Positions 2,296 through 54,316 of a DNA stretch of 54,316 nucleotides are shown here, piece after piece. The DNA is from a virus (Duplodnaviria; Caudoviricetes). The stretch covers positions 1 through 54,316 of IMG/VR virus record IMGVR_UViG_3300029258_005835; one strand, written 5' to 3'. The notes under the pieces are model-generated. The model was not told the DNA's origin, made no database searches, and was given only the letters and a program-made list of their open reading frames with translations. Each line of letters opens with the position of its first letter. Position 1 is the first letter of the stretch. A program made the position numbers and the translations under genes.

Positions 2296-4413
2296 ATGCT
2301 GGATCGGATTGAGCCGCAGTTCGGGGAGAACGCACAGAAGGTGCTGTGCAAGCGCTATCTTCGTAGATTAGACAGCAACCGCGATCCCTGTCCTCACTGT
2401 GGTGTATACCACGAGACACCAGCGGAGATGATCGACAGGGTCACGTTCGGCAACGACCATTACTACAATCTCTTGGCGAGCCTCGACTTCCTTCCTGGCA
2501 GCCCTACCCTGTTCAATGTTGGTACAGGGACAGGAACGAGCAGTAGCTGCTTCAAATTCGACGTCGCCGACAGCATGGAAAGTATCATGGACGTCGCGCG
2601 CAAGGCAGCGTTCGTGTTGAAGTGGGGAGGCGGCACAGGGTACGTGCTGTCGGCTCTCCGGCCAGAAGGCGCACCGATCGCGACTACTCACGGCAAGGCG
2701 TGTGGCCCGATAGCCGTGTTGCGGTTGTACCACGCTATCGCTCAGATGGTGACTCAGGGCGGCAAGCGGGCTGGAGCGCAGATGGCAGTGTTGCATTGTG
2801 AGCACCCAGACGTGGAGAAGTTTATCCGGTGCAAGGCGGATAGTCAGGACGCGCTTACTACTTTCAACATCTCAGTCGCTTGTACAAACGACTTCATGGA
2901 GGCGGCGGCGCGGTATTACCACAATCGGGAGGCGCCTGTTCCTCGAGAGTACGATCTCCTTGCACAGATGGCTGATAATGCGTGGAAGTATGGTGATCCG
3001 GGCTGCTTTTTCATCGACGCTGCGGAGGCAAGCAACCCAACACCGTGGTTGGGTCAGTTGACGGGCACGAACCCCTGCGGGGAAGTCCCACTGCTCGACA
3101 ACGAGCCGTGCAATCTCGGTAGCATCAATCTCAGCCACATGCTCGAGTACTACACCGACGGGACCGTTAGGGGATTCGATGTGACCAAGCTGGAGGATAC
3201 AGCTAGGTTGGCGGTGCGGTATTTGGACAAGGTATTGGACCTCAACCTGTTCCCTGATCCGGTTATCACTGAGGCGGCGTTGTGCACGCGGAAGCTGGGT
3301 TTGGGCGTCATGGGTTGGGCAGACGCGTTGGCTATGCTCCAGATGAGTTACGCCTCCGAGGATGCGCTGGTGGTCGCCGATGTGGTGATGCAGACTATCC
3401 AGAAAGCTGCTCACGATGAGAGCGTCAAACTCGGGGCGGAGAAGGGCTGCTACCCTGCCTACATAGGCACTAGCGGAGAGGGCCTTCGAGCGGAGCGAAG
3501 GAATGCGGCTTTGACTTGCATTGCTCCCTCTGGGTCTATCAGCGTTCTCGCTGGGTGCAGTAGCGGGATAGAACCTCACTTCACACTCGATGGATACCGT
3601 GCGCTGGGTGATGGGACTCGGCTGGAAGAGAAGCCGCAGGTCGACTTTGGGGAGTATCGTCCTCTGACTGCGCTCGAGATACCGTGGGAGTGGCATATTC
3701 GGCACCAAGCTATGTTTCAGAAGCACACTGATCTTGCTGTCAGCAAGACAGTCAATCTGCCCGAGGACGCAACTGAGGCTGACGTGCTCGGTGCCTACAT
3801 CATGGCGTGGGAGTCAGGGTGCAAGGGAGTCACGGTCTACCGGAACATGAGCCGCGACAGGCAAGTCATTGTGGGCGCGGATGAGTTAGACCACCTCCAC
3901 GGTCACGTCCTGTCTCCTGCCTCTGTCATGGCGTCTAGTGAGATTTCACGAAACGGGCGGCGCAAGATGCCCATTGATGCTACCAGCATCCGGCACAAGT
4001 TCAGTGTCAGTGGGATGGAGGGTTATCTCCATGTGGGTCTCTATCCCGATGGTTCTCCCGGGGAAGTGTTCATTACTGGGACAAAGCAGGGGTCGACTAT
4101 CAACGGTCTCATGGATGCAGTAGCCGTCCTGACGAGTATTGCTCTACAGTACGGTGTTCCTGTTGAGTCTCTTGTCAACAAGATGCGGGGGACTCGGTTT
4201 GAGCCTAGCGGTTTCACTGAGAATCAGGACATACCGAACGCGTCATCGGTGCTGGACTATATCTATAGGTTCTTAGGCAGACGGTTCATCGAGACCGATG
4301 GCAAGCTGGAGCAGCTGAACTCCGGTATGCTCTGCCCCGATTGTGGAGCGGAGGCCGTCTTGCAGGAAGGTTGCCTGACGTGCAGCAGAGGGTGTGGCTG
4401 GTCGAGGTGCTAG
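2296..4413 (+). CDS. nrdJ: Class II (adenosylcobalamin-dependent) ribonucleotide reductase
   Basis: FLPGSPTLFN, SSCF, GGGTG, TNPCGE, CNLGSINL, IAPSGSIS, KGVTVYR motifs; C-terminal TSCPD-like domain and CPDC...CGWSRC tail. Start moved to ATG 2296 (AGGAAGG upstream). Confidence 0.95.
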   Translation: MLDRIEPQFGENAQKVLCKRYLRRLDSNRDPCPHCGVYHETPAEMIDRVTFGNDHYYNLLASLDFLPGSPTLFNVGTGTGTSSSCFKFDVADSMESIMDVARKAAFVLKWGGGTGYVLSALRPEGAPIATTHGKACGPIAVLRLYHAIAQMVTQGGKRAGAQMAVLHCEHPDVEKFIRCKADSQDALTTFNISVACTNDFMEAAARYYHNREAPVPREYDLLAQMADNAWKYGDPGCFFIDAAEASNPTPWLGQLTGTNPCGEVPLLDNEPCNLGSINLSHMLEYYTDGTVRGFDVTKLEDTARLAVRYLDKVLDLNLFPDPVITEAALCTRKLGLGVMGWADALAMLQMSYASEDALVVADVVMQTIQKAAHDESVKLGAEKGCYPAYIGTSGEGLRAERRNAALTCIAPSGSISVLAGCSSGIEPHFTLDGYRALGDGTRLEEKPQVDFGEYRPLTALEIPWEWHIRHQAMFQKHTDLAVSKTVNLPEDATEADVLGAYIMAWESGCKGVTVYRNMSRDRQVIVGADELDHLHGHVLSPASVMASSEISRNGRRKMPIDATSIRHKFSVSGMEGYLHVGLYPDGSPGEVFITGTKQGSTINGLMDAVAVLTSIALQYGVPVESLVNKMRGTRFEPSGFTENQDIPNASSVLDYIYRFLGRRFIETDGKLEQLNSGMLCPDCGAEAVLQEGCLTCSRGCGWSRC

Positions 4414-28546: not shown

Positions 28547-30007
28547 GTGAACACCAACACCAAGTTGACTCTCACGAGGCTACTGCTGGCTGTCGTCGTA
28601 CTGGCGACAGTTCTCGCTTTTGTCGCCTCGGGCGCCGTCGCTCATGCAGCCGACGACCCACCCGAGTTGTATGAGCATATCAACACAGGCGGCGATGGAA
28701 ACAGCCCGCGCATCGCCGTCGGCAACTATACGGCGCAGAAGTTCACATCCGATGACGAGGCTCACTCCGTCACCAACATCCGGTTGCCCCTGATGAGAGT
28801 CGGAGACCCCGAGTACGTGACGCTGGAACTGACCACCGCCACCTCCGGCAACGTCTCGACTGGGGTCGTGATCGCTGATGTAACGATAACGACCGTTCTG
28901 ATCCCGACCGACGACTATGCATGGATCGACTTCGATGTGAGTGATTCCGGCGCGTCGCTGGACGGCAACACGAGCTACGTCATTGTACTCAGCGCTCCGT
29001 ACGGCAACCTCACGAATGACTACATCCTCTGGCAATCGGACGTGGGAGGCGACGGTGACGATGACACAGTGGGGTCTCACTCCACGAATGCAGGGGTCAC
29101 GTGGACTCTCGACACACCGACCGACTACCTGTTCGAGATATGGGGCAGCGGGTCTCTGATTCTCTACGGTGCAAACGTCTTCTCTGACTACATCGAGGAC
29201 GACGACTGGATCATCGTCATTGAGTACGAGAACACGTACCCGCCCTACTACCCGTCCGAGACCGTGGCGTCGTACTTCTTTTTCCAGCTGCTCGATCTCG
29301 ACGGCAACATCACAGCGGAGACCAACGTCCGTATGTGGGAGCACCGACCGGGAAGCATCTACCTGAACGCCGATGAGACGTCCATCTTGGAGTGGGGGTC
29401 CGCATACACCGTGCGGATGATCGGGAACTTTGGCACCGAGCCGTACGTTGACTACGTACTGACCCCGCCCGACTGGCGCGGGCAGGAGCTGACTCTGCTG
29501 GACGACTGGGTCATCGCGCTAGCCCACGAGATAGCAGACGAAGAGGATGAACTCCTGACCGAGTTCGTCGCCGACTCGGGGGAGGTCCTGAACAGTCGTG
29601 GGCAGACCATATTCGCTATCGGCATCCCCTATCTGGGCACGGTGCGGCCCGACCTGATGGAGATGGCCGTGCTGTCCCCGATGCCAACTGATAAGCCCAG
29701 CTTCTCCGTCACGGAGACAGATATCGAGACCGAGCTGGGTACGGAGCTTACGGGTGTGCTTGACGACGGTCGGACGTACATCGGGGTCGAGGACACCGAG
29801 ACTATGGGTGGGATCGTGGTCATGGGAGTGTGCGGCGCAGCACTGGCCGTATCCGCCGTGTTCGGCCATCTGCTCGTCGGCGTCGCACTCAGCTACGTCG
29901 CGTTGATTGCGGCGACTGTCGTAGGGGCCGTGGACTGGGTGTACCTCGGCATCGTGACGTTCGCGATAGCCGTCGTGTGGGTCTATATTCATTTCAGTAA
30001 TAGGTAG
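28547..30007 (+). CDS. Exported beta-rich protein with C-terminal multi-TM anchor
   Basis: Signal peptide ending AHA|ADD; YTAQKFT...DYLFEIW jelly-roll-like domain; about 3 C-terminal TMs. Confidence 0.8.
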   Translation: MNTNTKLTLTRLLLAVVVLATVLAFVASGAVAHAADDPPELYEHINTGGDGNSPRIAVGNYTAQKFTSDDEAHSVTNIRLPLMRVGDPEYVTLELTTATSGNVSTGVVIADVTITTVLIPTDDYAWIDFDVSDSGASLDGNTSYVIVLSAPYGNLTNDYILWQSDVGGDGDDDTVGSHSTNAGVTWTLDTPTDYLFEIWGSGSLILYGANVFSDYIEDDDWIIVIEYENTYPPYYPSETVASYFFFQLLDLDGNITAETNVRMWEHRPGSIYLNADETSILEWGSAYTVRMIGNFGTEPYVDYVLTPPDWRGQELTLLDDWVIALAHEIADEEDELLTEFVADSGEVLNSRGQTIFAIGIPYLGTVRPDLMEMAVLSPMPTDKPSFSVTETDIETELGTELTGVLDDGRTYIGVEDTETMGGIVVMGVCGAALAVSAVFGHLLVGVALSYVALIAATVVGAVDWVYLGIVTFAIAVVWVYIHFSNR

Positions 30008-37492: not shown

Positions 37493-37678
37493 TTAGGTTG
37501 GCCGACGAAACTCGATTAGTGCCAGGATGCCAACTACGATAAGGGCTACGGTGATCACGCCGACGGCCCACCACTTCGGCAGAAACACTAGGGACAGTAT
37601 GCTGACAGTCCCAGCGGCTACCACGAGTCCAAGACCCTGTAGGAAATACTTGTCCATACCTTTCCTAGGTGCCTTCAT
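37493..37678 (-). CDS. Small two-TM membrane protein
   Basis: Two hydrophobic helices. Confidence 0.65.
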   Translation of the reverse strand: MKAPRKGMDKYFLQGLGLVVAAGTVSILSLVFLPKWWAVGVITVALIVVGILALIEFRRPT

Positions 37679-37693
37679 CGTCCCATTCTCCTT

Positions 37694-37879
37694 TCACTCC
37701 TTTTGGTTTCTCTTAGCTCGAACAAATCCCACAACAACGCCTACGATCAACGCAGCAACAACAGCTGGTGCGGCATACCACAGACCACTTACAACCAATA
37801 CCCAAGATGCAACTCCAACCACAACTATACCCGGAAGCGCGATACCGACTACATCAAGTATGGATTTGCTGCTTCTCAT
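37694..37879 (-). CDS. Small two-TM membrane protein
   Basis: Two hydrophobic helices. Confidence 0.65.
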   Translation of the reverse strand: MRSSKSILDVVGIALPGIVVVGVASWVLVVSGLWYAAPAVVAALIVGVVVGFVRAKRNQKE

Positions 37880-37882
37880 TTC

Positions 37883-37993
37883 CTATTCTCCCTTCTCTCT
37901 CTTATCTTTCTTGTTGAGGATGATGGTAAGGATAAACCCTATGATCCCCACGACAGGGGCAATGCCGATCAGAATCTCTGGTGTACTCATCAT
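37883..37993 (-). CDS. 36-aa single-TM peptide
   Basis: MMSTPEILIGIAPVVGIIGFILTIILNKKDKREKGE; GAGGAGG RBS. Confidence 0.55.
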   Translation of the reverse strand: MMSTPEILIGIAPVVGIIGFILTIILNKKDKREKGE

Positions 37994-38207
37994 TTTCCTC
38001 CTCGTATCAGGTTGAGCGCCGCCCTATACGGCGGCCTAGCCCTGCTCCCGCAGCACCCTTCTGCGGCCCGCTTACTACCTCACGTCGATCGGTCGTCAGG
38101 TGGGGTTCGGTGCTGTGGGGCTTGCTGCCTGCCGCCCCTGTCTTGGCTTGTCTACCGTTTCATCCAACCTCCCGTTTCTCTATCTGCTGTAGTGTCTGCG
38201 TGTGGAT

Positions 38208-38423
38208 TCAGCAGAAGAGATGTGCGAACTTGGCTACAAGCGTGCTCCAACAGACTCCTAGCACTACTGGGGCCACAACCAAGAGTGTTATCAGTACGGG
38301 GTTCGGACCCCATGCATCCCACAGAGGGGAAGCGATTGCTCCTGTTGTCACAAGCAGCATTGCCCATCCTGCCGTCTCTACCATCGTCTGCCTCGACTCA
38401 TCTGCTGTCACTTTCTCTTTCAC
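38208..38423 (-). CDS. Small two-TM membrane protein
   Basis: First ORF after the leftward promoter; GGAGG RBS. Confidence 0.6.
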   Translation of the reverse strand: MKEKVTADESRQTMVETAGWAMLLVTTGAIASPLWDAWGPNPVLITLLVVAPVVLGVCWSTLVAKFAHLFC

Positions 38424-38456
38424 TGTCTTTACCCTCCTGTTTCTCTATCTGCCACA

Positions 38457-38486
38457 ACTATAGCACACACACGCACACAATGTCAA
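38457..38486 (-). promoter_or_regulatory. Leftward sigma70-type promoter
   Basis: Minus strand TTGACA-N18-TATAGT with TGn. Confidence 0.75.
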
Positions 38487-38724
38487 CCCCCCTGTCACCA
38501 AAATCATGAAAATCGTCAAAATCGTACGTAAAATCGAACCCATGTTCTAGGGATTTCCGAGGATTTCTGAGGGTTTCCGAGGGGTATAACCTCCTCCGGC
38601 ACCCCCCGAGCGCGACCCTCGGGCACCAGCGTCGAGCGCCAGCGTCGGGCACCCGCATCGGTCGCCACGCGCGTCCGCGCCGGACCAGCACGAGCGTCGG
38701 AATCCCCGTTCCGTACGGATGTTC

Positions 38725-38754
38725 TTGACAGATGTTCTATTGTCGTGATAGAAT
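38725..38754 (+). promoter_or_regulatory. Sigma70-type promoter of the intron-containing gene
   Basis: TTGACA-N18-TAGAAT with TGn. Confidence 0.8.
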
Positions 38755-38801
38755 ATACAACCGTATAGGGCTGTCTTGCCCGAGAAAGTGGGTGCAGGTA
38801 A

Positions 38802-39974
38802 ATGTCAGTCAGAGGATTGGTAACGGTGGTAAGTAACGATTGCCACCTAACCCAGCTCATATCGGTGAAACCCTACTGCTCGCGGCAACGGAGCAAGGGC
38901 AATACCGAGGGAAGTCGGGGAGATCGTTTTCTCCCTTGACCCCGTAGAGACTGACGACCGACTGCAAATGCCGAATCTAGGCGACATCGCGAAGGCATCG
39001 GAGATAGGCTATAGCGGGCGTGCGTTGTTCGTCTGGATAGCTTGCCCCGACTGCGGTACGCAACGGTGGCGTCCTCTCCACAACGAGATCACACGCTGCT
39101 GGAAGTGTTCGGCCAACAAGCGCGAACGCGACTTAAAGCCGATCACCTTCCTTGGCACGGGTGCGCCGATAGTCGGAGACACGACCACAGCGGCTGCGAT
39201 AGGGAAAGCCGGAAGAGGAATCTATGCCTACACTGCTTGCCCCAAGTGTGGAAAAACACGTTGGGTTCGGTGGCGACAGATGGATTCGCTGTGCACAGCT
39301 TGCACGGCGCTATCGAACAGCGTGCGATCCGGCAGCGAACACCCCAAGTGGAAAGGCGGAGTCAAGAAAACACGAGGCTACGTCTACGTGCTGATTCCGC
39401 GAACAGACCCGCTTTTCCCAATGGCTGTTAAGCGCTACAAGAATCAAGGTGTTGTTGCCGAGCACAGGCTTGTCGTGGCACGGTCTATCGGTAGGCCGTT
39501 GCGCCCCGACGAGGTCGTCCATCACATCAACGGCACCAAGGACGACAATCGCAGGGAAAACCTTCGGCTGCTTACTAAGCAAAGCCACCACTCAGCCCTA
39601 GTGATGCAGGAGACACAGGATAGGGTGCGAAACCTTGAGGTTAGAGTGACGATGCTTGAGGCAGAGAACACGGCATTAAAAGCTAGTTTGCAGGAGGTCG
39701 GAGATAGCGACACCTCTCCAGAACTGAATTTGCGTCGCTATAATACGCTGGGCGACCTGCCTGACAAGCAGGTTGAAGGTATAGTCCATGCCCCCTAGTA
39801 ATAGGAGGACAAACACGGATCGGCGTAGTTGCCTTTGTGGTCATCGACAGCCTAATCACGAACATCATCACGGGAACAGATACTGGGAGCGTTATACTAC
39901 AGAATTTGCTCCGGGTGATCGTGGCAGCGGCCATCCTGATCGGTGTGGTCATGTCGATTGGTCGGAAGGGCTAG
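38802..39974 (+). CDS. Intron-split 61-aa two-helix hydrophobic protein, join(38802..38830,39818..39974); candidate major capsid protein
   Basis: Spliced product MSVRGLVTVVIGVVAFVVIDSLITNIITGTDTGSVILQNLLRVIVAAAILIGVVMSIGRKG; the exons sum to 186 nt in frame. Confidence 0.85.
38831..39817 (+). ncRNA. Group I self-splicing intron (IA-like, with P7.1/P7.2)
   Basis: P1 GGUGGU/GCCACC with U.G at the splice site; P3 CCCAGC/GCUGGG; P4 UCGGUG/UACCGA; P7 GACUG/UAGUC; P8 ACCUGC/GCAGGU; J8/7 GAAGGUA; P9 CCUA-GUAA-UAGG; omega-G 39817; P10 CGAUU/GAUCG. Confidence 0.93.
38968..39798 (+). CDS. Intron-encoded HNH homing endonuclease with two Zn-ribbon repeats
   Basis: CPDCG..RW..CWKC and CPKCG..RW..CTAC; HPKWKGG; EHRLV...VHHINGTKDDNRRENL. 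Confidence 0.92.
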   Translation: MPNLGDIAKASEIGYSGRALFVWIACPDCGTQRWRPLHNEITRCWKCSANKRERDLKPITFLGTGAPIVGDTTTAAAIGKAGRGIYAYTACPKCGKTRWVRWRQMDSLCTACTALSNSVRSGSEHPKWKGGVKKTRGYVYVLIPRTDPLFPMAVKRYKNQGVVAEHRLVVARSIGRPLRPDEVVHHINGTKDDNRRENLRLLTKQSHHSALVMQETQDRVRNLEVRVTMLEAENTALKASLQEVGDSDTSPELNLRRYNTLGDLPDKQVEGIVHAP

Positions 39975-40034
39975 GCCCGACCCGGCCTCTCGGCTCTCCG
40001 CCCTTTGGGAGATCGCCGGAAGGAAGAGGAGAAC

Positions 40035-40075
40035 AAGAGGGGCATCGCTGGTGGGGCGGTGCCCCTTCCTCTTAT
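40035..40075 (+). terminator. Hairpin, probable terminator after the spliced gene
   Basis: AGGGGCATCGC-N7-GCGGTGCCCCT followed by the pyrimidine-rich TCCTCTTATCT. Confidence 0.45.
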
Positions 40076-40115
40076 CTGGAACGAATAGTGGTAGTAGAGG
40101 AGGAGGTGGTAGCAG

Positions 40116-42207: not shown

Positions 42208-43308
42208 ATGACGACGAAGGAAAGAGCGATCGAGGACTGGGAAGAGAAGCTGCCGGACAGGACGACGACACGCGTGTCCAGTATGTCTGACGACCTGTTC
42301 GATACCTCCATGGGGTACGACGACGAGGTCGGCGTCCGGCTGGCAAGCGGCCTGAGTCCTGACGATGTAGAGCGCGCGAAGCTGCTTTACAGGTTGTTCA
42401 ATGGCCTGTGGGGCGTCGCGATCGTGGTTGGAGACCCGGGGACAGGGAAAGACCTGCTCGGCAACTATCTCACCTACCGTATGAAGAGGTATTTTCCATG
42501 GAAGCGCATTCTGCGGGACGAGAAGCCGAGGCCGCTGTACGGACCCTACGCCGGATTGTTCAATGAGACTGTGTTGGCCGAGGAACTGGGGCGGATGAAA
42601 GAGGTGGCCGCTGGTGTCGGTGCCACGAAGGTTGACGCCATCATGGAGAAGGCAGCCGACGACTGGGTATCAAAGAAAGGCGCGGTGCTGCTGAAGAACT
42701 CCATCCTGTATCTCACGGAGTACTGGCGGTACTGCTACAACCGCGAGCCGCACAACCCGATGAACAAGACGATGGGTGGCATCCACAAGATGAAAAGACA
42801 CTTGGACTGCCTGATATTGGGAACGGTGCAGCTTGCGACGGAACTGGATAAGAAAACGTGCCTGCCGTGGGTGGATTGGAGAGTGACGTGCACGCGGTCC
42901 CGGACCAATGTCACGCGGTTCAGCTACTTCGTCGAGCGCGTCAAGTACGACAGGCGATTGGACCTCCTGATCTCGACCAGCAAGCCGTTCCGTATATCGT
43001 TTGACGCCGGGAAGCCCCGAAGCGACATGGGCGACGGCAGGATCGTCGTCAGGAAGCACGGGTACAGGCCGGAGAACGAGGACGAGCGGGTCGTGCTGGA
43101 CGCGCTCGCTGCCGGAGCCGAGACCTACGAGGACTTGGTGGCGCTGCTGGAGACGCACGGTGATATGTCGGAGTGGGAGACCCTAGCGACGCTGAAAGAG
43201 TTGAAGTTCCGACGCAGCAAGCGGGTGATTGACTACCCGTGCGACTTCGGGCTGTACAACTCGAAATCCGCCCCGCAAATCAAATCGAGCATCAAGATCG
43301 GGGATTAG
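42208..43308 (+). CDS. P-loop ATPase (Zot/assembly-ATPase-like) with C-terminal wHTH-like segment
   Basis: AIVVGDPGTGKD Walker A; ILYLTE degenerate Walker B; KRHLDCLILGTVQ...LDK resembles the Zot-like RH..hhhhTQ...LDK motif. Confidence 0.75.
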   Translation: MTTKERAIEDWEEKLPDRTTTRVSSMSDDLFDTSMGYDDEVGVRLASGLSPDDVERAKLLYRLFNGLWGVAIVVGDPGTGKDLLGNYLTYRMKRYFPWKRILRDEKPRPLYGPYAGLFNETVLAEELGRMKEVAAGVGATKVDAIMEKAADDWVSKKGAVLLKNSILYLTEYWRYCYNREPHNPMNKTMGGIHKMKRHLDCLILGTVQLATELDKKTCLPWVDWRVTCTRSRTNVTRFSYFVERVKYDRRLDLLISTSKPFRISFDAGKPRSDMGDGRIVVRKHGYRPENEDERVVLDALAAGAETYEDLVALLETHGDMSEWETLATLKELKFRRSKRVIDYPCDFGLYNSKSAPQIKSSIKIGD

Positions 43309-44528: not shown

Positions 44529-44644
44529 CAATGGAGTACGATGCGCGGACTGCTGGGCTACAGGGTTAGTTGGTTCCGGCTGGCCTGGTGCGCCTTCTGG
44601 CTGTCTTTGCCGGCAGCCATTTTTGTAGTTGCGCAGAGGGTAGT

Positions 44645-47600
44645 ATGACTCAAGCAGAGCACAACGCACGAGAGCAAGAGGCACGGCACAAACTAGGTAT
44701 CCTTGGCCGTATTATCCTCGCTCTCGTTGTTTTTGTTGTCACTCTTCCTATCTCTATCTCGCTCGAAACGCATGTTATCCCCTATTTGCCGTGGTTGGGG
44801 AGTGGAGAGCAGAATGTCGCTCGTGCAGAACCCGACGTATCTGATTTCACGTACTCGCATATCGTCACGGTCAAGAACAACTCAGGAGCAGCAGTCACAA
44901 ATCCCATACTGCGAATCCCTGTAATCCCCTACGAGGCTATTGATGTATCGACGTGGACAGTCACACTCGCTGATTCTAATTCTCATACCTACAACACCTG
45001 TATCCCTATCCGTGTGGCAGAGATGGCGAATGAGACCCTGACGAATCATGAAGTCAAGGTCGGGCCAATTGATACTGAGTGGCTCATAAATAACAGTTGG
45101 GCCTCGGCAGATGGGAATGAGTGCGTTTTTGCTACAACCAATGATAGCACGATAGCTGCCTCAGACCTGATGCGCTGGTATTGGGACGGGCAATCCGATG
45201 GCCCTTATGGATGGGATGAGCCTGATACCTACTTCTGGGTTGAAGGCAACCTGACTGCATGGGGTAATGACACATGGTACATGCTGATTGACCCTGACCT
45301 TGGCTCCATCGTACCAGGAGCAGGGACGACGAAGTGCACAAGTGGCATTTTTGATTTCCACGACCCTATGGACGATGGGGATAACTGGGATACAGACGAT
45401 GGCTCCGAGTCATACGCTGCGGGTATCTGCACAATCAGGGATGGCACAGACCCGGAGCAGATTACCTCCAAATCAACCTTTGGTGAAGATCATGGGCTAC
45501 GAGCCAGGGTCAATGTCCCAAATGCAGACGGGAATGATATTCTTGAGGGTTCACAATTCGGGTTCTCGAATGATGGTCGCACTCTTGATCTTGCTTTTAT
45601 CAACCTGCAATTCGCTAATTATGACGAGGCCATAGAGTGTGACGACGCGGCTGTTACCGTGGAAGACGACCAATACCCCTATGTAGAGGGCTCCTATGCG
45701 GTCTATGACATCCAGCGGCGCGACGACCATAGTGCAGATAACAGATCGGTATGGGGCCAATTCCACTGCAATAATGTTCAATTGACCGACGCGCCAATAT
45801 GGACAAATGTACCCGACGACGCCCTTGAAGTCCTATTCTGGTCAGACGATGAGAATTTACTTATTGATTGGGTGTTTGTCTACGACTATGTTTCGCCCGA
45901 GCCGATAGTCAATATTCCCTTCATACACCACGACCCTGATACCGTCTTCCTGGCCGAAAGGTGCGAGCACTGGCCCTACGATATAGAGTTCACCAAGACG
46001 GGGAACACCTCTGAACTCTACAATCATGCTGACCGGACAACGCTCTCCTCGGAGTACGCGACTGAGTTCTATGTTGAGTACATCGGCACGATCAATAACG
46101 GGGCTTCAGCCAACGTAACCATTCACTACGGCAACGCTGCCCAGTCGAGTGCATCAGCCTATCGGGATGCCTCCAAAGTCTTCGACGGCACAGGCGCGTT
46201 CTGGGATGACTTTGAAGGCGTCATACTATGGGCCAATACATCAGGGACGTGGGGGCTGTCAGACCAGCAGAGAGCAGAGGTTTTCGACTATCACCTGATG
46301 AACCAGGACGATGACTTATCATCTATCTGGGCGGGTAGCCCTACATGGACTTATGACGGAGATGAGTGGATGCTGCCGTTCGTAGGCTCGTGGGCGGGGA
46401 CAACCAGTAACAATCAAGGGGACCCCCAGTGGATGATACCGTGGGAGAATGTCCTATATAAGAAAATTGGGAGCCAGTGGTATAGGTGGGGATATGTTCT
46501 GACAGGCGAATATGACGAGTTCAACCATGCGTCTTCGCTGGGTAGGTTTGCATGGTATGGCGACGACTCACACATGGGCAACTCTAGTTGGCTTTACTTC
46601 CTCCTTGGGGTTACTACTGTCGAAGATGGAGATGGTGCCTCATTCCTTTTCTATTCAGAGGACGGTGGTAAACACTGGAAAGTCCTGAACGGAGGTGCGC
46701 CCTACGTTGATCTCACCTGTACTGATGCTGTTGATGTGCGGGGCCGTTTTGCCAGCTTGGTCTACGACAATGGCTATTGGTTCCAAGGCTACACAAATGC
46801 TGTGGATAGTTGGGACCCGAGTTATCTCTATGCAAACGATACGGCTTTTGAGGATATGCTGTACGACCGAGGCACGATCGTTCCCGCTGACGTATGGACA
46901 GACGGAGGGGAGATAATAAACACAGGCGTGGGTGAGGGGATAGAGGAGTTTTACTGGTATCAAAAAGCAGGCGGGAACTGGACACTCCAAGCCGAAGTGA
47001 TAATAGATGACGATTTGGTTTATTCAGATTGTGATGGCGATGACTTTGGAATAACCATGGACTCAACCGACTGGTCGGCGCTGGCAAATATGAAAGACCA
47101 TGACGACATCTATCAATGGTCTGCCGTTGACAGAAATACCCCCCACTCCGTTGTAGGTGGGGATAGCCCCAATATGGTCTTTGGTGGGGCGCAGTCACCT
47201 ATGGAAAGGACCACACAGCTTGCCTTTGCACACAGTAGCAGTTTTGCTGGCGATGATTGGACTCTCCAGAACATTGACAAGGAACGATGTCAGGCTGCCG
47301 ATGCAGCAGCGTGGCAAACTTCAACTGTCACAGGAGGGAACTACTCAGCAGGGGAGATCATTGCTGAGTGCACAGTCCACACAACTGGCGGAGATGGCTA
47401 CGCAGGCATCGTGTGGCGCTACGAGGACGACGATAATTTCTGCGCGTGGGTTGTGAATTCCATAAACGACACGATGTCTTATGGTATTCAGTCAGGCGGT
47501 GTCTGGAGTGGGTTGACCAGCTATGACCCCGGCGAGGAGATATGGCTTGGCGAGAACTACCGCCTCGCAGTGGAGTTTGATGGGGCCACAACGACGCTCA

Positions 47601-50600
47601 AATACTCAAAGATCGGCTGGGAGTGGACAACAGCGTACAGTGACATTGACCTATCAGATGGCAACGTGGCGAACTATGGCAGCGCGGGAACGATCACCTA
47701 TGGCACGTATGGCCTGTTTGACGACTTCCGCATATCACCGAATGCGCTTGGTGATTTGGAGATCACCGACCAGGGAATGCTCACCGTCACGACTGAGGCA
47801 GCGACAGGAGTAGGTACAACATCGGCCACCCTCGTTGGCAACATCACAGCAGGGACAGCGGCAGCGATAGGCTTCGCGTGGGGTACAGCCTCATGCGGTG
47901 ATCCCGGCGATACAGCACCGGGAGATTCGTCCTACAACCTTGATAGCCGGACCAACGTAGATGAGTGTGCCACAGGGCAATACACCCACGGTGCAACTGG
48001 GTTACCACAAGGATCAACAATCTACTACCGCTTCGCTGCACAGTCAGAGGCGTTCCCCGGCACATGGTACTGGGGAGATGAGGAATCGTTCAGCACTGCT
48101 GGAACACCAACCTGTGTAACGGACACCGCGACAAATGTAGACGAGACATCGGCTACCTTGCGAGGAAACATCACCGCAGATGAGACAGTTGCCGAGATGC
48201 AAGCGCTCGGCTACACCGTCGTCAGCACCGGCCCCAGTAATTATGGTGTTGGTGATTACTCCGACGCAATCAGTGGACTCAACGAGGGCACCTGTTATTA
48301 TGCCAGATTTGGTGCCAACAATACGGTCGGCTTTGGTTGGGGCAGTGAAGTTACTCTTGTCACATTGCCCCGTCCACCAAACACCTGCACCGTTTCGAGC
48401 TATGACGAAGACTCAATCTCTCTGACGTGGAATGCTGGTAACGGCTCAGGCGATACCGTTATCCGCTATGGAACATCATGCCCAGCCAATTATACAGACG
48501 GTTCCAGCGGCTATGTCGGCAACGGAACATCCTGCACTATCAGCGGTCTCTCGGAAGGGACTCAATACTGCTTCCGAGAGTGGAGCAACACTACATCTTG
48601 TAGCGAGACGGTATGGTCGAGCACCTACTGCGAAATCACGCAGTATACTTTGCCGGGGAATATCACCAATCTCGATGCCGATAATCCAAGTGCGACGACG
48701 ATTGACTTAGAGTGGACTGTTGGCAGCGGAGCCAATAGCACTGTTGTGCGTGGAAAGCAGGGTTCATACCCTACCGATAGAACCGATGGTGTTGAAGTCT
48801 ACAATAGCACCGGGAACTCGACAACCCACACCGGGCTTGGCTGCGGAGAGTCATGGTACTACCGCGCGTGGTCGTATGATGCCGAGTCAGGATACTACAG
48901 CGCCGGATACAGCGAGGATGCCAACGCGACTTCAGCCTGCAACGCTCCTGCCGTTGTCACGACTTCTGCGACGTCAGTCAATGTAACCTCAGCGACGCTG
49001 AACGGGAATATCACCGACACCGGGAACAGCGACGTCACGAACTACGCATTCGTGTGGGGGAACTCGTCGCAAGCCGCACCTGTGGGAGCGCCGCCGGGAA
49101 ACTATGATGATTCGTGGACCTCCGACGCTGGTAACTATACCGTCGGTGACTACAACCATGGGGCACCGGGACTCAACGAGGGTGACTGCTATCATTTCAG
49201 GATTGGCGCCAACAACTCCGGCGGCTGGACGTGGGGCGACGAACTCACGTTCGTGACGCTGCCGTACCCGCCACACACTTGCTCGGCTACTCTCGCTGAC
49301 CTCACCGACACCTTCATGCCGTTCACGTGGGTCAAAGGATCAGGAGCCAACGAAACCGTGTGGCGATATGATACCGTAGCCAACGGCTGCCCAGCCAACG
49401 TCACTGATGGACTGGATGCTGGGACGTACAGCGGGACGAGCGGGAACATCAGCGGCTTGGCTCCGTCTACCGAGTACTGCGTGTGGGGACAGTGCAACAC
49501 TACTGCCTGCAACGAGACGGTGTGGAGCGACGGGCATTGCGACTTCAACCAGTATACACGCCCGGGGAACTGCACCAATTTCGACGCAGACAACCCGTCC
49601 GATACCACGCTTGACATCGAGTGGACAGTAGGGTTGGGATCGGACTACACGATGGTCAGGTATCGCACCGACACCTACCCGACGGACGAGGCGGACGGGA
49701 CGCAAGCGTACTACGACACGGGGAACTCGACGACGCTGACGTTGGACTGTAATACGACCTACTATTTCCGCGCGTGGGCGTACTATACCGTGTCAGGGTT
49801 ATACGCGGCTGGCTACTGCCAAGATGGGAATGCAACACTGACCTGCCAGAACTGCACGGTCGTCACCAATCCCGCGACCGACGTCGAGGAAACGAGCGCG
49901 ACGCTCAACGGCAATCTCACCGATGTCGGCTCGGGGAACGCTACCGACTGGGGATTCGTATGGTCCACGTCGAGCCATGGCGCGCCCGGTAACGTCGCTC
50001 CCGGTGCGTCAGGGTACGAGCAGTCCAGCATTGCCAGCGGCAACCATGGAGTCGGGACGTTCAGCGGCGCTACTGGTGATGTTCTGAGTGAAGGGGACTG
50101 CTACTACTTCAGGGCGTGGGCGAACAACACTGGGGGGTACTCGTACGGCGAGGAGAGACAGCTGTTCACGAAACCGGACGAACCGAGCGGGTGCTCCGCG
50201 ACCGACCACACCTATGACTCAGTGACGCTCTCGTGGACGAACGGGGACGGGTACGGGAACGTCACGGTGCGGTATGACACGACGTTGAACGGGTGCCCTG
50301 CCGACGAGACGGACGGGTCTCTGGGGTACTGGGGGACGGCGGCGACGACTACGGTGAGTGGGCTAGACCCGAACACGGAGTACTGCTTCCGCATCTGGAG
50401 CCATGCGGACGGATGCAACAGCACGAGCTGGTACTCCGACCTGTACTGCGAAGTCACGGAGTACACGTCACCGGGGAATGTCACTAACTGCGATGCACAC
50501 GGCCCGACGTACACCACCATCGACCTTGACTGGACGGTGGGCAACAACAGCGACATGACCCTCGTGCTGGGACGGAATGACGGGTCGTACCCCACGGGAC

Positions 50601-51856
50601 CGACAGACGGGGCAGCGACTACCGTGTACTACGGTGCGGGGAACACGACGACGCACACCGACCTGACGTGTGGTGACACGTGGCACTATGGGTTCTACGG
50701 ATACGCTGTCAATAGTGGCTATTACTCGGACGACCCGTGCCAAGATACGGAGACGGTGGTGGCGTGCATCGCTCCGACCGTGCTCAATGTGAGCGGGAAC
50801 TATACGTCCTGCTCGACTGCCAGCATTGTCGGCAATGTTACCGGACTCGGGGGCACCAACGTCGTCCGGCGCGGCGTCACGTACGACACGATTTGCAGGG
50901 CTGATCCGGGGAACGGGACGGCTCCAGCGGCGAGTGCGTGGACGTGGAACGAGATGGCGACAGGAGACTGGGGCGTCGGTACGTACACTACGTCCCTGAC
51001 TGGACTGACAGAGAGTACGACCTACTACTGGATGGCTGTTGTTTATAACGGGTTCTACTGGGACTACTCGGGGGTATGCGGCAACTTCACGACTCCGGCG
51101 TGCCCTGAGTGTGTTGAGCCGGGGAACCTGACGGCCACGGCGATCAACGATACCAAGATCGAGCTGGAGTGGTCGGGCGACACGATCAACAACAGCATCA
51201 TACGGATGGGGCTGGACGAGGCGCCCAGTGGGCCTACTCAGGGTAATCCGGTGTTCGATGACGTCGGCAATTCGACAGCTTACTACTACGATATGGACTG
51301 CTGCTTCGATGGTGATATCTACTTCTCACTCTGGACGGACTGTGGAAACGGGACGTACAAGGGGCCATCGACAGCTTCAGTCACAGGAGGTGCGGGAGTG
51401 ACTGCAATAGGGATAGGGCTGAACAGCCTCGGTATGATTCTGCTAGCGGTGCTGCTGACCGTCGCGATGTTCCATACACGGAACAAGCTGCTCGGATTCC
51501 CGTGCCTAATCTTCTGGGCGATCCTCGGCGGGTACTTCTACCAGCAGTCGGAGGCCACGTGGGATATCAACTACCTGCTCTTTTTCGCCTCGATGGGCAT
51601 GGCGATCTTCACAGGGTACGCGGCGTACGCGCTGCGGAAGTCTGACCTGTCCGGCCCGAATGCGGACGAGGGTGCGTTCATCGACGAGGGCGGAGGTAGT
51701 GGTGGTAAGCGGTACGTGGAGGACAAAGAGTCGGATGAGTACATTGACGAGGGAGAATCGAAGCCGAGTGCACGCACGAGAGACCTGCGGGCGCGTGCTG
51801 CACGGAGGCGGTCGGGGAACGTGAGCAGGAAGCCGTCGTGGGACGAGTTCAAGTAG
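44645..51856 (+). CDS. Giant membrane-anchored surface or adhesin protein (DUF2341-like, ConA-like, propeller, Cys-rich FN3 stalk, C-terminal TMs)
   Basis: About 2400 aa; N-terminal TM/signal; repeated SATLxGNIT, SGLxxxTxYC and GSYPT..TDG units; three C-terminal TMs. Confidence 0.88.
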   Translation: MTQAEHNAREQEARHKLGILGRIILALVVFVVTLPISISLETHVIPYLPWLGSGEQNVARAEPDVSDFTYSHIVTVKNNSGAAVTNPILRIPVIPYEAIDVSTWTVTLADSNSHTYNTCIPIRVAEMANETLTNHEVKVGPIDTEWLINNSWASADGNECVFATTNDSTIAASDLMRWYWDGQSDGPYGWDEPDTYFWVEGNLTAWGNDTWYMLIDPDLGSIVPGAGTTKCTSGIFDFHDPMDDGDNWDTDDGSESYAAGICTIRDGTDPEQITSKSTFGEDHGLRARVNVPNADGNDILEGSQFGFSNDGRTLDLAFINLQFANYDEAIECDDAAVTVEDDQYPYVEGSYAVYDIQRRDDHSADNRSVWGQFHCNNVQLTDAPIWTNVPDDALEVLFWSDDENLLIDWVFVYDYVSPEPIVNIPFIHHDPDTVFLAERCEHWPYDIEFTKTGNTSELYNHADRTTLSSEYATEFYVEYIGTINNGASANVTIHYGNAAQSSASAYRDASKVFDGTGAFWDDFEGVILWANTSGTWGLSDQQRAEVFDYHLMNQDDDLSSIWAGSPTWTYDGDEWMLPFVGSWAGTTSNNQGDPQWMIPWENVLYKKIGSQWYRWGYVLTGEYDEFNHASSLGRFAWYGDDSHMGNSSWLYFLLGVTTVEDGDGASFLFYSEDGGKHWKVLNGGAPYVDLTCTDAVDVRGRFASLVYDNGYWFQGYTNAVDSWDPSYLYANDTAFEDMLYDRGTIVPADVWTDGGEIINTGVGEGIEEFYWYQKAGGNWTLQAEVIIDDDLVYSDCDGDDFGITMDSTDWSALANMKDHDDIYQWSAVDRNTPHSVVGGDSPNMVFGGAQSPMERTTQLAFAHSSSFAGDDWTLQNIDKERCQAADAAAWQTSTVTGGNYSAGEIIAECTVHTTGGDGYAGIVWRYEDDDNFCAWVVNSINDTMSYGIQSGGVWSGLTSYDPGEEIWLGENYRLAVEFDGATTTLKYSKIGWEWTTAYSDIDLSDGNVANYGSAGTITYGTYGLFDDFRISPNALGDLEITDQGMLTVTTEAATGVGTTSATLVGNITAGTAAAIGFAWGTASCGDPGDTAPGDSSYNLDSRTNVDECATGQYTHGATGLPQGSTIYYRFAAQSEAFPGTWYWGDEESFSTAGTPTCVTDTATNVDETSATLRGNITADETVAEMQALGYTVVSTGPSNYGVGDYSDAISGLNEGTCYYARFGANNTVGFGWGSEVTLVTLPRPPNTCTVSSYDEDSISLTWNAGNGSGDTVIRYGTSCPANYTDGSSGYVGNGTSCTISGLSEGTQYCFREWSNTTSCSETVWSSTYCEITQYTLPGNITNLDADNPSATTIDLEWTVGSGANSTVVRGKQGSYPTDRTDGVEVYNSTGNSTTHTGLGCGESWYYRAWSYDAESGYYSAGYSEDANATSACNAPAVVTTSATSVNVTSATLNGNITDTGNSDVTNYAFVWGNSSQAAPVGAPPGNYDDSWTSDAGNYTVGDYNHGAPGLNEGDCYHFRIGANNSGGWTWGDELTFVTLPYPPHTCSATLADLTDTFMPFTWVKGSGANETVWRYDTVANGCPANVTDGLDAGTYSGTSGNISGLAPSTEYCVWGQCNTTACNETVWSDGHCDFNQYTRPGNCTNFDADNPSDTTLDIEWTVGLGSDYTMVRYRTDTYPTDEADGTQAYYDTGNSTTLTLDCNTTYYFRAWAYYTVSGLYAAGYCQDGNATLTCQNCTVVTNPATDVEETSATLNGNLTDVGSGNATDWGFVWSTSSHGAPGNVAPGASGYEQSSIASGNHGVGTFSGATGDVLSEGDCYYFRAWANNTGGYSYGEERQLFTKPDEPSGCSATDHTYDSVTLSWTNGDGYGNVTVRYDTTLNGCPADETDGSLGYWGTAATTTVSGLDPNTEYCFRIWSHADGCNSTSWYSDLYCEVTEYTSPGNVTNCDAHGPTYTTIDLDWTVGNNSDMTLVLGRNDGSYPTGPTDGAATTVYYGAGNTTTHTDLTCGDTWHYGFYGYAVNSGYYSDDPCQDTETVVACIAPTVLNVSGNYTSCSTASIVGNVTGLGGTNVVRRGVTYDTICRADPGNGTAPAASAWTWNEMATGDWGVGTYTTSLTGLTESTTYYWMAVVYNGFYWDYSGVCGNFTTPACPECVEPGNLTATAINDTKIELEWSGDTINNSIIRMGLDEAPSGPTQGNPVFDDVGNSTAYYYDMDCCFDGDIYFSLWTDCGNGTYKGPSTASVTGGAGVTAIGIGLNSLGMILLAVLLTVAMFHTRNKLLGFPCLIFWAILGGYFYQQSEATWDINYLLFFASMGMAIFTGYAAYALRKSDLSGPNADEGAFIDEGGGSGGKRYVEDKESDEYIDEGESKPSARTRDLRARAARRRSGNVSRKPSWDEFK

Positions 51857-52602: not shown

Positions 52603-53202
52603 GTGATGAAAGCCGAGTACAAGGGGGACATACTGTCGGTGCGAGCAGTCGAGGATTGCATTCGTGCAACGCGGAAGTACACGAAGGGTGTGTTTTCCCG
52701 CAAGGTCAAGCACCCGATACAGGGTGAGGACTTCCCGAGCAGGTTGCTGACGGAATACTACGAGGTGTACCCAGACACGGAAGTGAGTTGGGATATGCCT
52801 GCGGCGAAAGCGTGGGCGTGGGTCTGGGGAGACGTCACGCGCATCGACGTGCGGTTCTCGTATGACTATCGCGAGGACAAAGCACGAGTAGTCGTGTACG
52901 GTGGCGAGGAAGCTGTGCGCGAGTTGGCGTCTGGGATACCGGGGTTCGCAACTGCGTTGGTCGCGGTGGGAGCACAAGCTCCCGTTGTCGCTGCTCCGGC
53001 TGCGGATATATCTACGGTAGGCGAGGTGGAAGGGGATGGACGACCTGTCAGCGGATCGCGGAAACGCACCAGAGCCACCGGATCAGGAGCAGGTGCACGG
53101 TCAGGAGCAAACACAGGCGGCAGGAGACGGACCCAGAAAGGCCAGCCGGTGGTGGATAGCCCTGATCGGGTCGGGGCTAGCGCTGTCTCCTATCCACAAT
53201 AG
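52603..53202 (+). CDS. Hypothetical protein
   Basis: GGAGG RBS; low-complexity C-terminus overlaps the next gene. Confidence 0.6.
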   Translation: MMKAEYKGDILSVRAVEDCIRATRKYTKGVFSRKVKHPIQGEDFPSRLLTEYYEVYPDTEVSWDMPAAKAWAWVWGDVTRIDVRFSYDYREDKARVVVYGGEEAVRELASGIPGFATALVAVGAQAPVVAAPAADISTVGEVEGDGRPVSGSRKRTRATGSGAGARSGANTGGRRRTQKGQPVVDSPDRVGASAVSYPQ

Positions 53203-54316
53203 CGTTATTACCGACTGGACGACGAATGAGAAGGGGGAAACCCTCTTCTTTTTACCCGCTTTTGCCTATCTGCTGCTCCTGATGGGGTCGTGGATGTTCC
53301 TGTTGTGGAACTGGGAGCGGGTCAAAGAGGTCGGCTGGGGGAGCAGGATGATTACTGTTCCCCTTCTTGTTATCTGCGCCGCTATCGCCCTCTCCGGTAT
53401 TGCCGTCGAGGGAGGAATAGGCGACAAGATTGCTCCCTTGGGCATGGGGGCGGCGCTGTTCTCGCTGTACCTTACCGCGAGGGTCTTGGGTCGCGACCTG
53501 TTCCTTCCGCTGGCTGTCGGGGCTGCTGTTGCGTCTGGTGGGATTCTGGTGTACCAGCTGCTGTACTTCGGCGGGCCGACCGGCGGGTTCATCTTCGAGG
53601 ACAACTACGACATCGCTACGGGGTACATCCTCCTCGGTGCGGCGCTGTTGGTCGGGAGGAAGTCGTGGCAGCAGGGGCTGGCGTTCTTGGCGCTGATCGC
53701 CCTGTTCCTCTCCGGGTCCGCGGAGGCTGTGTTCGCCGTCGGTGTCGTAGGACTGGCGATGCTTGTGCGGCGCGACTGGTCGCGGAGGGCGGTTGTGCTG
53801 CTGGCTGTGTTCGCAGTCGTAGCAGTGGCTGTGTTCGCGTCTGGGTACGGGAGCGGGCTGCACAGCCTTACGGCTGGTGGGCTGACTGGAGACACGGAGC
53901 AGGCGAGCCGGACGGGGAGTGATGGTGAGGAGCTGACCCTTGCAGAGGACCGCTGGGAGCTTATCACGAACGCTATGGCCGATATCAAGCCGCTGGGAGA
54001 AGGGTACATCGTCACTGAGTTCCAGAAGGTGGACATGGTCCACAACGTGCCGCTGGTGATCGTCCAGCAGCTGGGATGGCCGGGAGTGCTGGCTGCGGCG
54101 GCATGGCTATGGGTGTCGCTCTGGTGCCTGGTGCGGTCGCGCTGGAAGTACGTCTGGATTCTGGTGCTGGCACTCAGCGTCTGGGACCACTACGTTTTCA
54201 CCCAACTGGCGCCGCTCTGGCCGATGATCGTCGGAGCGTGCTTGGTGGATACTGTGGATTCCGACCTGATATTTCGTGGGCGAGGGCTTGACAAAGGTAG
54301 TACCTTAGTAGTATAA
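53036..54316 (+). CDS. O-antigen ligase/Wzy_C-like multi-TM protein
   Basis: About 11 TMs; GGFIFEDNYD, ALFLSGS, R-W...PLGEG...HNVPLVIVQQLGWPG signature. Confidence 0.8.
   Translation: MDDLSADRGNAPEPPDQEQVHGQEQTQAAGDGPRKASRWWIALIGSGLALSPIHNSVITDWTTNEKGETLFFLPAFAYLLLLMGSWMFLLWNWERVKEVGWGSRMITVPLLVICAAIALSGIAVEGGIGDKIAPLGMGAALFSLYLTARVLGRDLFLPLAVGAAVASGGILVYQLLYFGGPTGGFIFEDNYDIATGYILLGAALLVGRKSWQQGLAFLALIALFLSGSAEAVFAVGVVGLAMLVRRDWSRRAVVLLAVFAVVAVAVFASGYGSGLHSLTAGGLTGDTEQASRTGSDGEELTLAEDRWELITNAMADIKPLGEGYIVTEFQKVDMVHNVPLVIVQQLGWPGVLAAAAWLWVSLWCLVRSRWKYVWILVLALSVWDHYVFTQLAPLWPMIVGACLVDTVDSDLIFRGRGLDKGSTLVV
54288..54316 (+). promoter_or_regulatory. Sigma70-type promoter at the window edge
   Basis: TTGACA-N18-TATAA, truncated by the window end. 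Confidence 0.6.

Follow-up and report, generated by a model that had tools for sequence, protein, structure and literature searches.

A probable mobile group I intron in a 186-nucleotide, strongly conserved gene of an uncultivated bacterial virus

A single gene may contain several group I intron insertion sites, as does orf142 of Twort. The nrdE gene of the Bacillus cereus group has three (PMC2248736). In such systems more than one group I intron occupies a conserved gene, and intron-plus and intron-minus alleles coexist in a population. A second set of precedents comes from DNA polymerase genes. According to PMC3428280, IA2 introns with HNH open reading frames (ORFs) interrupt these genes in the T7-like phages PhiI, W31 and Pf-WMP3 (I-PfoP3I). 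Here we describe a locus that resembles both sets of systems. It lies in a stretch of viral DNA of 54,316 bases (hereafter the window), an IMG/VR record labelled 'provirus'. An IA2-type group I intron, mobile and equipped with an HNH homing endonuclease, very probably interrupts the first gene of a rightward operon in this uncultivated bacterial virus.

The polymerase introns of PMC3428280 share with the window's a set of helices P1 to P10 minus P2, the additional helices P7.1 and P7.2, a U.G pair at the 5′ splice site, an omega-G, a short P10, an HNH ORF that overlaps core helices, and a conserved phage gene as host. The host gene differs: a DNA-metabolism gene there, a gene of only 186 nucleotides (nt) from a family without a known match here. 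The position of the ORF differs as well, in the P7.1 loop in the window and starting in P6a in Pf-WMP3 (PMC3428280). Compared with nrdE-like systems, the insertion sites in the window's gene family lie only 9 nt apart in a gene of 61 codons, and they are used by two differing ribozyme backbones, both able to carry one HNH family. The intron is ordinary in kind and belongs to a well-known class. Its setting is unusual, with a tiny host gene, a different intron 9 nt away and an endonuclease family common to both. A further oddity is that, in a lineage whose available pieces have no recognisable particle genes, the hidden protein comes from the most conserved gene seen.

The split gene comprises three segments:

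38802 to 38830, plus strand: exon 1, 29 nt, opening with ATG and holding 9 2/3 codons; its final U is the U of the P1 U.G pair
38831 to 39817, plus strand: the insertion, a group I intron of 987 nt whose last base is G
39818 to 39974, plus strand: exon 2, 157 nt, holding the third base of codon 10, then 51 codons and the stop

Joined, the exons form a 186-nt gene of 61 codons, and the junction (38830 to 39818) falls inside codon 10, after its second base. The translation of the spliced frame equals that of an uninterrupted gene in a related viral contig (L006, positions 2971-3153; L numbers are our handles for related loci), with 61 of 61 residues the same. In codons 1 to 58, substitutions separate the two genes at 36 of 174 bases (21%), while 0 of 58 residues change. 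Agreement at the junction combined with entirely silent divergence could not have been produced by chance. The original prediction, made from the letters of the window, had placed the splice sites after 38830 and 39817 and had proposed a hidden 61-amino-acid (aa) ORF; both proved exact, with intron-less alleles and covariation in agreement.

Support for the exon boundaries also comes from proteins encoded without the insertion. A query made of exon 2 only (51 residues) matched 153 proteins at E≤0.01 among 169 candidates in the protein collection, mostly 60-64 aa long and 80-98% identical. Twenty-five of these were fetched, and 20 (61-66 aa) start with the exon-1 peptide, fused unbroken to the exon-2 peptide. 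One of the others has a longer N-terminus, one starts later, and three (P0064, P0066 and P0067) are miscalls at an intron in a second site, described below. Viral contigs L006 and L007 both contain the uninterrupted gene. As had been foreseen, ORF callers miss the split form: the ORF list gives two frames of 45 aa, one running out of exon 1 into the insertion and the other opening with GTG within exon 2, besides a 276-aa ORF in the insertion. A motif search of the window found a single copy of the 61-aa gene. The intron form also occurs, without a difference or a joint, in contigs of four DNA sequencing runs; these are not independent of the window because they are possibly the source of this DNA. 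Among sequencing runs listed as containing 38700-40100, none is of RNA. An intein was considered and rejected, as the insertion interrupts the host frame with stops and has an ORF of its own.

Judged by its sequence, the insertion is a group I intron with a real core. The elements of the drawn structure are:

38837 to 38847, plus strand: internal guide sequence, of which 38842-38847 pairs with the end of exon 1 (P1) and 38837-38841 with exon 2 (P10)
38825-38830 with 38842-38847, plus strand: P1, with a terminal U.G
38837-38841 with 39818-39822, plus strand: P10, reaching the first 5 nt of exon 2
38851-38856 with 39747-39752, plus strand: P3
38863-38867 with 38903-38907, plus strand: P4, followed by J4/5 AAA
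38871-38873 with 38897-38899, plus strand: P5
38877-38881 with 38891-38895, plus strand: P5a
38909-38916 with 38938-38943, plus strand: P6
38918-38923 with 38930-38935, plus strand: P6a
38947-38952 with 39783-39787, plus strand: P7, with a bulged A (38948)
38955-38967 with 39688-39700, plus strand: P7.1, closing the endonuclease-ORF loop; its 5′ strand ends one base before the ORF's AUG
39704-39711 with 39734-39741, plus strand: P7.2 hairpin
39756-39760 with 39768-39772, plus strand: P8
39773 to 39782, plus strand: J8/7
39792-39797 with 39802-39808, plus strand: P9, with a GUAA loop
39817, plus strand: omega-G, the last intron base

This structure was compared with an alignment (MAFFT) of five distinct related introns, namely those of the window, L008/L027, L030, L046 and L019, all at the same site. 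L008 and L027 share a 979-nt intron, those of L030 and L046 measure 878 and 980 nt, and L019 contributes the 3′ part only. Across the five introns, 91.3% of the 312 cells of the 77-pair structure form standard pairs, as against 33-44% in slid controls with the 3′ partners shifted by 1-3 columns. Both sides change in 22 of the 77 pairs, and 0 of 500 shuffles reached either figure; an earlier 58-pair version was also tested. P1 is 100% paired in four sequences, with an invariant U.G and one compensated pair (G-C in the window, C-G in three relatives), and P10 is 95% paired. P4, P5, P6 and P7 are 100% paired and mostly invariant. The covarying helices are P3 (95.8% paired, 3 compensated pairs), P7.1, P7.2 (8 pairs, 100% paired in five sequences, 4 of them changing on both sides), P8 (87.5%, 3 compensated pairs) and P9 (90%, 4 compensated pairs). 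P6a varies in length among the relatives, with 6, 4, 2 or 0 pairs. When the flanks of the ORF loop were co-folded, a long-range P7.1 and a local P7.2 appeared in all four introns folded, although their sequences differ. The omega-G is present in four of the five introns.

A G-C pair follows the bulged A (38948) in P7, and we take the two together to be the guanosine site. P1 and P3 are separated by only three bases, which leaves no P2. IA2 phage introns have, as described in PMC3428280, P1 to P10 minus P2 together with P7.1 and P7.2, and the assignment of the window's intron rests on this combination. That description also includes a G-U-A linker between P7.1 and P7.2, which was not seen in the window's intron, and the label 'IA2-like' rather than IA2 is therefore the stricter one. 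A 19-nt core pattern was sought in viral contigs and occurred only in the L008 contig and in one chance match within a coding region. The original prediction had described a complete group I core. Its P1 with U.G, its P10, its omega-G and helices P3 to P9, with covariation, all hold up, and only the Rfam signal is weaker than it implied.

The insertion carries a gene of its own, which the original prediction had left out:

38968 to 39798, plus strand: intron ORF for an HNH endonuclease, 276 aa, with Pfam HNH_3, in the P7.1 loop

The HNH_3 match covers residues 166-208 (E 9.1e-11, 41.7 bits against a cut-off of 24.8) and is preceded by N-terminal zinc-ribbon-like repeats. The 3′ end of the ORF overlaps the 3′ strand of P7.1, P7.2, the 3′ strand of P3, P8, J8/7 and the 3′ strand of P7, and reaches into P9. 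All four full-length introns at this site have the ORF, intact in the window and in L008/L027 (60% identity) and broken in L030 and L046, and all four keep the ribozyme core, the copies with broken ORFs included. Intact and broken ORFs beside a kept core fit the usual picture of invasion and decay.

The distribution of the intron was examined in a metagenome scan that returned 194 relatives of the small protein, of which 79 loci were kept. In a scripted tblastn, 68 of them had only uninterrupted copies, in line with the intron-less homologues that the original prediction had looked to. Four were split at the window's site (L019, L027, L030 and L046) and seven were split 9 nt downstream (L051, L054, L056, L065, L077, L084 and L088). 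One of the 68, L012, contains a split copy in addition to an intact one. These counts are not frequencies, because the loci were kept by score, which disfavours split genes, and some are the same contigs as the viral loci. Presence and absence alleles at one site, together with the decayed ORFs, suggest homing by the HNH endonuclease. Four other viral loci with HNH relatives (L002-L005) gave no Rfam group I match at E≤0.01. A blastn search of the locus against deposited phages found no DNA similarity except for a 77-nt HNH stretch.

The second insertion site lies 9 nt downstream, after the second base of codon 13 rather than of codon 10. It is occupied in L009 (intron at 2704-3000), L051, L054, L088, L056, L012, L065, L077 and L084. 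In every copy that shows the end concerned, U ends exon 1 and G ends the intron. The guide covaries with the exon, an exon ending in GGCGU facing the guide GCGCU and one ending in GGGGU facing GCCCU. The ORF-less copies measure 297-310 nt and score 42.3, 39.1 and 33.7 bits against RF00028. These introns have a P2, a helix aligned by Rfam as P9 that bears a GAAA loop, and, where present, an ORF near the 5′ end. The P2 and the GAAA loop mark a ribozyme different from the window's. The ORF-bearing copies, L056 (949 nt) and L012, encode the same HNH family as the window, with full-length identities of 39% (E 6e-66) and 48% (E 5e-86), respectively. One endonuclease family thus rides two ribozyme scaffolds at neighbouring sites, and a single cut site could serve both introns.

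In the proposed mechanism, P1 would form in the folded pre-messenger RNA between the guide sequence and the six final bases of exon 1, with the U.G at the cut. Free guanosine bound in P7 would then attack at the 5′ splice site, after which P10 would bring in exon 2 and omega-G (39817) would be exchanged for the guanosine. Splicing would join 38830 to 39818 within codon 10, and the spliced messenger RNA would encode the 61-aa protein, with two hydrophobic helices and a short polar turn. In co-infecting relatives, intron-less alleles would be cut by the endonuclease, and repair would copy the intron in.

Several observations weigh against this account. The covariation test had only five introns, one of them partial, and the structure was drawn on the window itself, which biases it over the slid controls. 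P5a is paired in just 50% of the cells in the MAFFT columns; read by eye, the relatives' differently built P5a is misplaced by the alignment, which explains the low figure. In the L046 intron (193-1173), A replaces the omega-G, J8/7 is altered and the HNH ORF is broken. This copy may be defective and not splice, and its state may reflect either decay or sequencing error in a single 1.9-kb contig. Covariance-model searches also gave less than the original prediction implied. The whole window matched nothing in Rfam at the gathering score, and in E-value mode RF00028 aligned partially, over 39679-39808, with 25.6 bits against a gathering score of 50 (E 4.4e-4). The alignment covers P8, the J8/7 consensus, the 3′ strand of P7 and P9, with J8/7 and that P7 strand matching the consensus within 39745-39808. 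No relative reached the RF00028 threshold of 50 either, the best being the second-site intron of L009 at 42.3 bits. We attribute the window's low score to the ORF loop of about 0.74 kb in P7.1, which splits the core. Splicing itself we infer from sequence.

The protein that splicing would reveal is small and simple. An AlphaFold model built with 29 relatives (predicted local distance difference test score, pLDDT, 80) has two hydrophobic helices, at residues 3-26 and 32-58, with an invariant polar turn between them. The original prediction had described these helices and their polar turn correctly; the basic C-terminus it added amounts to two basic residues in a short, charged tail. Its claim of strong conservation is supported. 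A 45-residue aligned stretch is 100% identical to L006 and L009, whereas neighbouring proteins in those two loci are 49-58%, 45-72%, 54% and 49-67% identical. None of the family searches for the 61-aa protein gave a meaningful match: the best were E 0.12 in Pfam (DUF1385), E 0.02 in NCBIfam (NuoN) and, for the 29 members scanned, E 0.12 in PHROGs. Foldseek returned no match to the model at E≤0.001 in the PDB or BFVD, and tblastn of exon 2 against deposited phages found nothing. Literature searches, within the library searched, found no paper on this protein family or on an intron in such a gene.

Around the gene lie candidate expression signals and, further downstream, a gene for a nucleoside triphosphatase:

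38725 to 38754, plus strand: promoter-like site of the sigma-70 type, TTGACA-18-TAGAAT, matching 11/12 positions, with TG
38486 to 38457, minus strand: mirror promoter-like site, an 11/12 match
40037 to 40067, plus strand: GC-rich hairpin 63 nt past the stop, terminator-like with a poor U tail
42208 to 43308: Walker-A nucleoside triphosphatase (NTPase), 366 aa, with a C-terminal winged helix

The original prediction had given the gene a consensus promoter and a downstream hairpin of its own, and both are there, the first as a consensus match. Promoter-like sites are not more numerous than expected in the 10-kb region (4, against a shuffle mean of 4.4), so the argument that these two are promoters draws on their quality and divergent placement. 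A strong hairpin lies 3′ of the gene in all four relatives folded, with z scores of -2.15 (window), -5.08, -2.46 and -4.69; that of L006 (-5.08) has a 14-pair stem followed by six U. Between the divergent sites, 38000-38700 is a stretch of about 700 nt without a convincing gene, containing CT-rich and C-rich runs. Downstream of the minus-strand site, at 37493-37993 on the minus strand, lie three small membrane ORFs (61, 61 and 36 aa). The two of 61 aa were considered as relatives of the split gene and rejected; the one tested gave an hhalign probability of 1.3%.

Conserved genes follow the split gene, among them those for a 264-aa protein with two membrane helices and for the 366-aa NTPase. 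The NTPase has 411 metagenome relatives, none with a Pfam domain. Its language-model look-alikes fall in clusters with 12-29% Zot or 20-25% AAA members, a lead only; Pfam Zot was not found in the window. The structural model is poor (pLDDT 61.5), with only the C-terminal winged helix recognisable (Z 6-7), a part modelled with confidence. Foldseek of this model found no match at E≤0.001, and tblastn of the NTPase against deposited phages found nothing.

Comparison of 50 window ORFs with PHROGs gave no terminase, portal, capsid, tail, lysin or holin family. The matches that did appear were to ribonucleotide reductase, a helicase, PolA, endonuclease VII, a radical SAM protein and a few families without assigned function. 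Four related records, together 236 kb long, gave no match to Terminase_6N, TerL_ATPase, Terminase_6C or Phage_portal. The only Phage_capsid match is sub-threshold (14.3 bits, E 4.9e-4) and lies at 46982-47158, inside an ORF of 2428 aa; this ORF (44570-51856) has fibronectin type III domains. An N-terminal signal-like helix, three C-terminal membrane helices and a choice-of-anchor R-like domain (E 3.6e-6, short of the cut-off) give a 486-aa protein at 28547-30007 the appearance of a surface or spike protein anchored in the membrane.

The window is itself a trimmed fragment. Its last ORF (53036-54316, a weakly Wzy_C-like membrane protein) stops on the window's last base, and a related record (G001, L092:1242-16244) has a homologue of this gene, 55% identical, and continues past it. 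The further genes there encode three glycosyltransferases, a radical SAM protein, an aminotransferase and two methyltransferases, and belong either to a glycosylation cluster that the virus carries or to the DNA of a host. CheckV rates three relatives 38-42% complete, and related contigs reach 95.7 kb. Missing ordinary capsid genes prove little in a trimmed fragment, and such genes may lie outside the stretch examined. PolA is at most 31% identical to deposited phages, and no transfer RNA gene is present. Pattern scans of a species-genome collection for a host found relatives of neither the small protein nor the NTPase. An archaeal host appears unlikely in view of the two sigma-70-type sites (11/12, with TG), Shine-Dalgarno sequences and PolA.

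Our best guess, a tentative one, places the 61-aa protein among the abundant, membrane-embedded components of the particle or of virion assembly, and we favour such a role over one in lysis. A more specific proposal makes the hairpin the major protein in the coat or envelope of a particle without a tail, in the manner of fusellovirus VP1 or the coat proteins of filamentous phages; we regard this as somewhat more doubtful. A coat role would account for the extreme conservation relative to neighbouring genes and for the two or three tandem full copies found in 29 of the 79 loci (L015, L023, L025 and L072 among them). The position of the gene, first after an 11/12 promoter-like site and followed by a hairpin, as in all four relatives folded, fits a separately and highly expressed gene. 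The conserved downstream module, with membrane proteins and a Walker-A NTPase that has look-alikes in Zot and AAA clusters, points the same way, as does the absence of terminase, portal, capsid, tail and lysin families from the 50 window ORFs and of the terminase and portal Pfam families from the four related records.

There is also a precedent. A 2026 preprint proposes budding or filamentous double-stranded DNA (dsDNA) viruses in Chloroflexota, on the basis of a pI-like ATPase and small hydrophobic proteins that structurally match SSV1 VP1 (10.64898/2026.09.15.751708). The window resembles fuselloviruses and the IME1 elements of Dehalococcoides, with their VP1-like small proteins, in having a P-loop NTPase and small membrane proteins nearby and no tailed-phage hallmark genes. 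It differs from IME1 in being twice its size and in having its own PolA, ribonucleotide reductase and helicase (10.64898/2026.09.15.751708).

The protein itself gives the coat proposal little help. SSV19 VP1 (7xdi_A) has 69 aa against 61 here, and both have two hydrophobic helices, but PDB profile and PHROGs searches connected the 61-aa sequence neither with VP1 nor with any coat protein. The 29-member profile matched no PDB chain at E≤10, even though entry 7xdi is in the bank, and the preprint's VP1 family was not among the 11 families listed by PHROGs. Foldseek relates the model to 7xdi_A as a generic hairpin (E 6.4, template-modelling scores 0.61/0.56). A structural alignment (Z 6.0, root-mean-square deviation 3.4 over 61 residues) ranks this chain 11th of 14, below unrelated hairpins such as the ATP-synthase c subunit (Z 8.1) and MscS (Z 7.4). 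The likeness to VP1 that the original prediction had proposed therefore amounts to 'small two-helix membrane protein', and its naming of a probable major capsid gene found no supporting test: the protein has no known-family link and is a generic helical hairpin. Further points against a coat role are the lack of Pfam Zot in the window, the poor NTPase model with its lone winged helix, the C-terminus with just two basic residues, and the trimming of the window and incompleteness of its relatives, which may place capsid genes outside the DNA at hand.

Holins are among the least conserved phage proteins. The 61-aa protein is nearly invariant, and this variability of holins is one reason why we think it unlikely to be a small lysis or membrane-acting protein (a class II holin, a pinholin or an exclusion protein). 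Tandem copies and first place in a morphogenesis-like module are likewise atypical of holins, the family matches no holin model in Pfam or PHROGs, and no endolysin was found among the 50 ORFs scanned from this incomplete genome. A lysis role would nonetheless suit a small phage-encoded protein with two predicted transmembrane helices and a short charged C-terminus, and the opposite-strand two-helix proteins nearby have weak, sub-threshold matches to Phage_holin_3_6 (E 0.037 and 1.1). Very improbable, finally, is that the insertion is a dead, non-splicing element and the small gene a pseudogene in this virus: the sub-threshold Rfam scores and the L046 relative without omega-G would agree with it, but the window's core helices, U.G, omega-G, P10 and J8/7 consensus are intact, the helices are kept by compensatory changes, the exons preserve an invariant protein across 21% base divergence from L006, unlike a pseudogene, and the window has no second copy of the gene.

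Extending our preferred reading, in which the protein serves assembly or the particle, we can sketch a bolder scenario, more doubtful again than the coat role by itself. A new lineage of large dsDNA bacterial viruses without tails, with related contigs of 50-96 kb and budding, filamentous or spindle-like particles, would use the 61-aa hairpin as its main coat or envelope protein, embedded in the membrane. Assembly would involve the P-loop NTPase, membrane-anchored spike-like proteins and perhaps the virus's own glycosylation genes. The coat gene would be the most invariant gene and hence the landing site for two ribozymes trading one endonuclease family.

Gene callers break the 61-aa gene, and the window would yield a 45-aa fragment or nothing. 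The database already holds miscalled hybrids from the second-site intron, the three proteins named above. In this way the most conserved protein of a virus lineage widespread in sediment and water is partly hidden. For students of intron mobility, the locus is a compact natural case of homing, in which two scaffolds with one endonuclease family occupy two sites separated by 9 nt, some copies are intact and others decayed, and the host gene is so short that guide sequence, target site and protein constraints overlap. And since examination of four related records revealed no ordinary capsid gene, the 61-aa protein is a good first target for learning what the particle of this lineage is.

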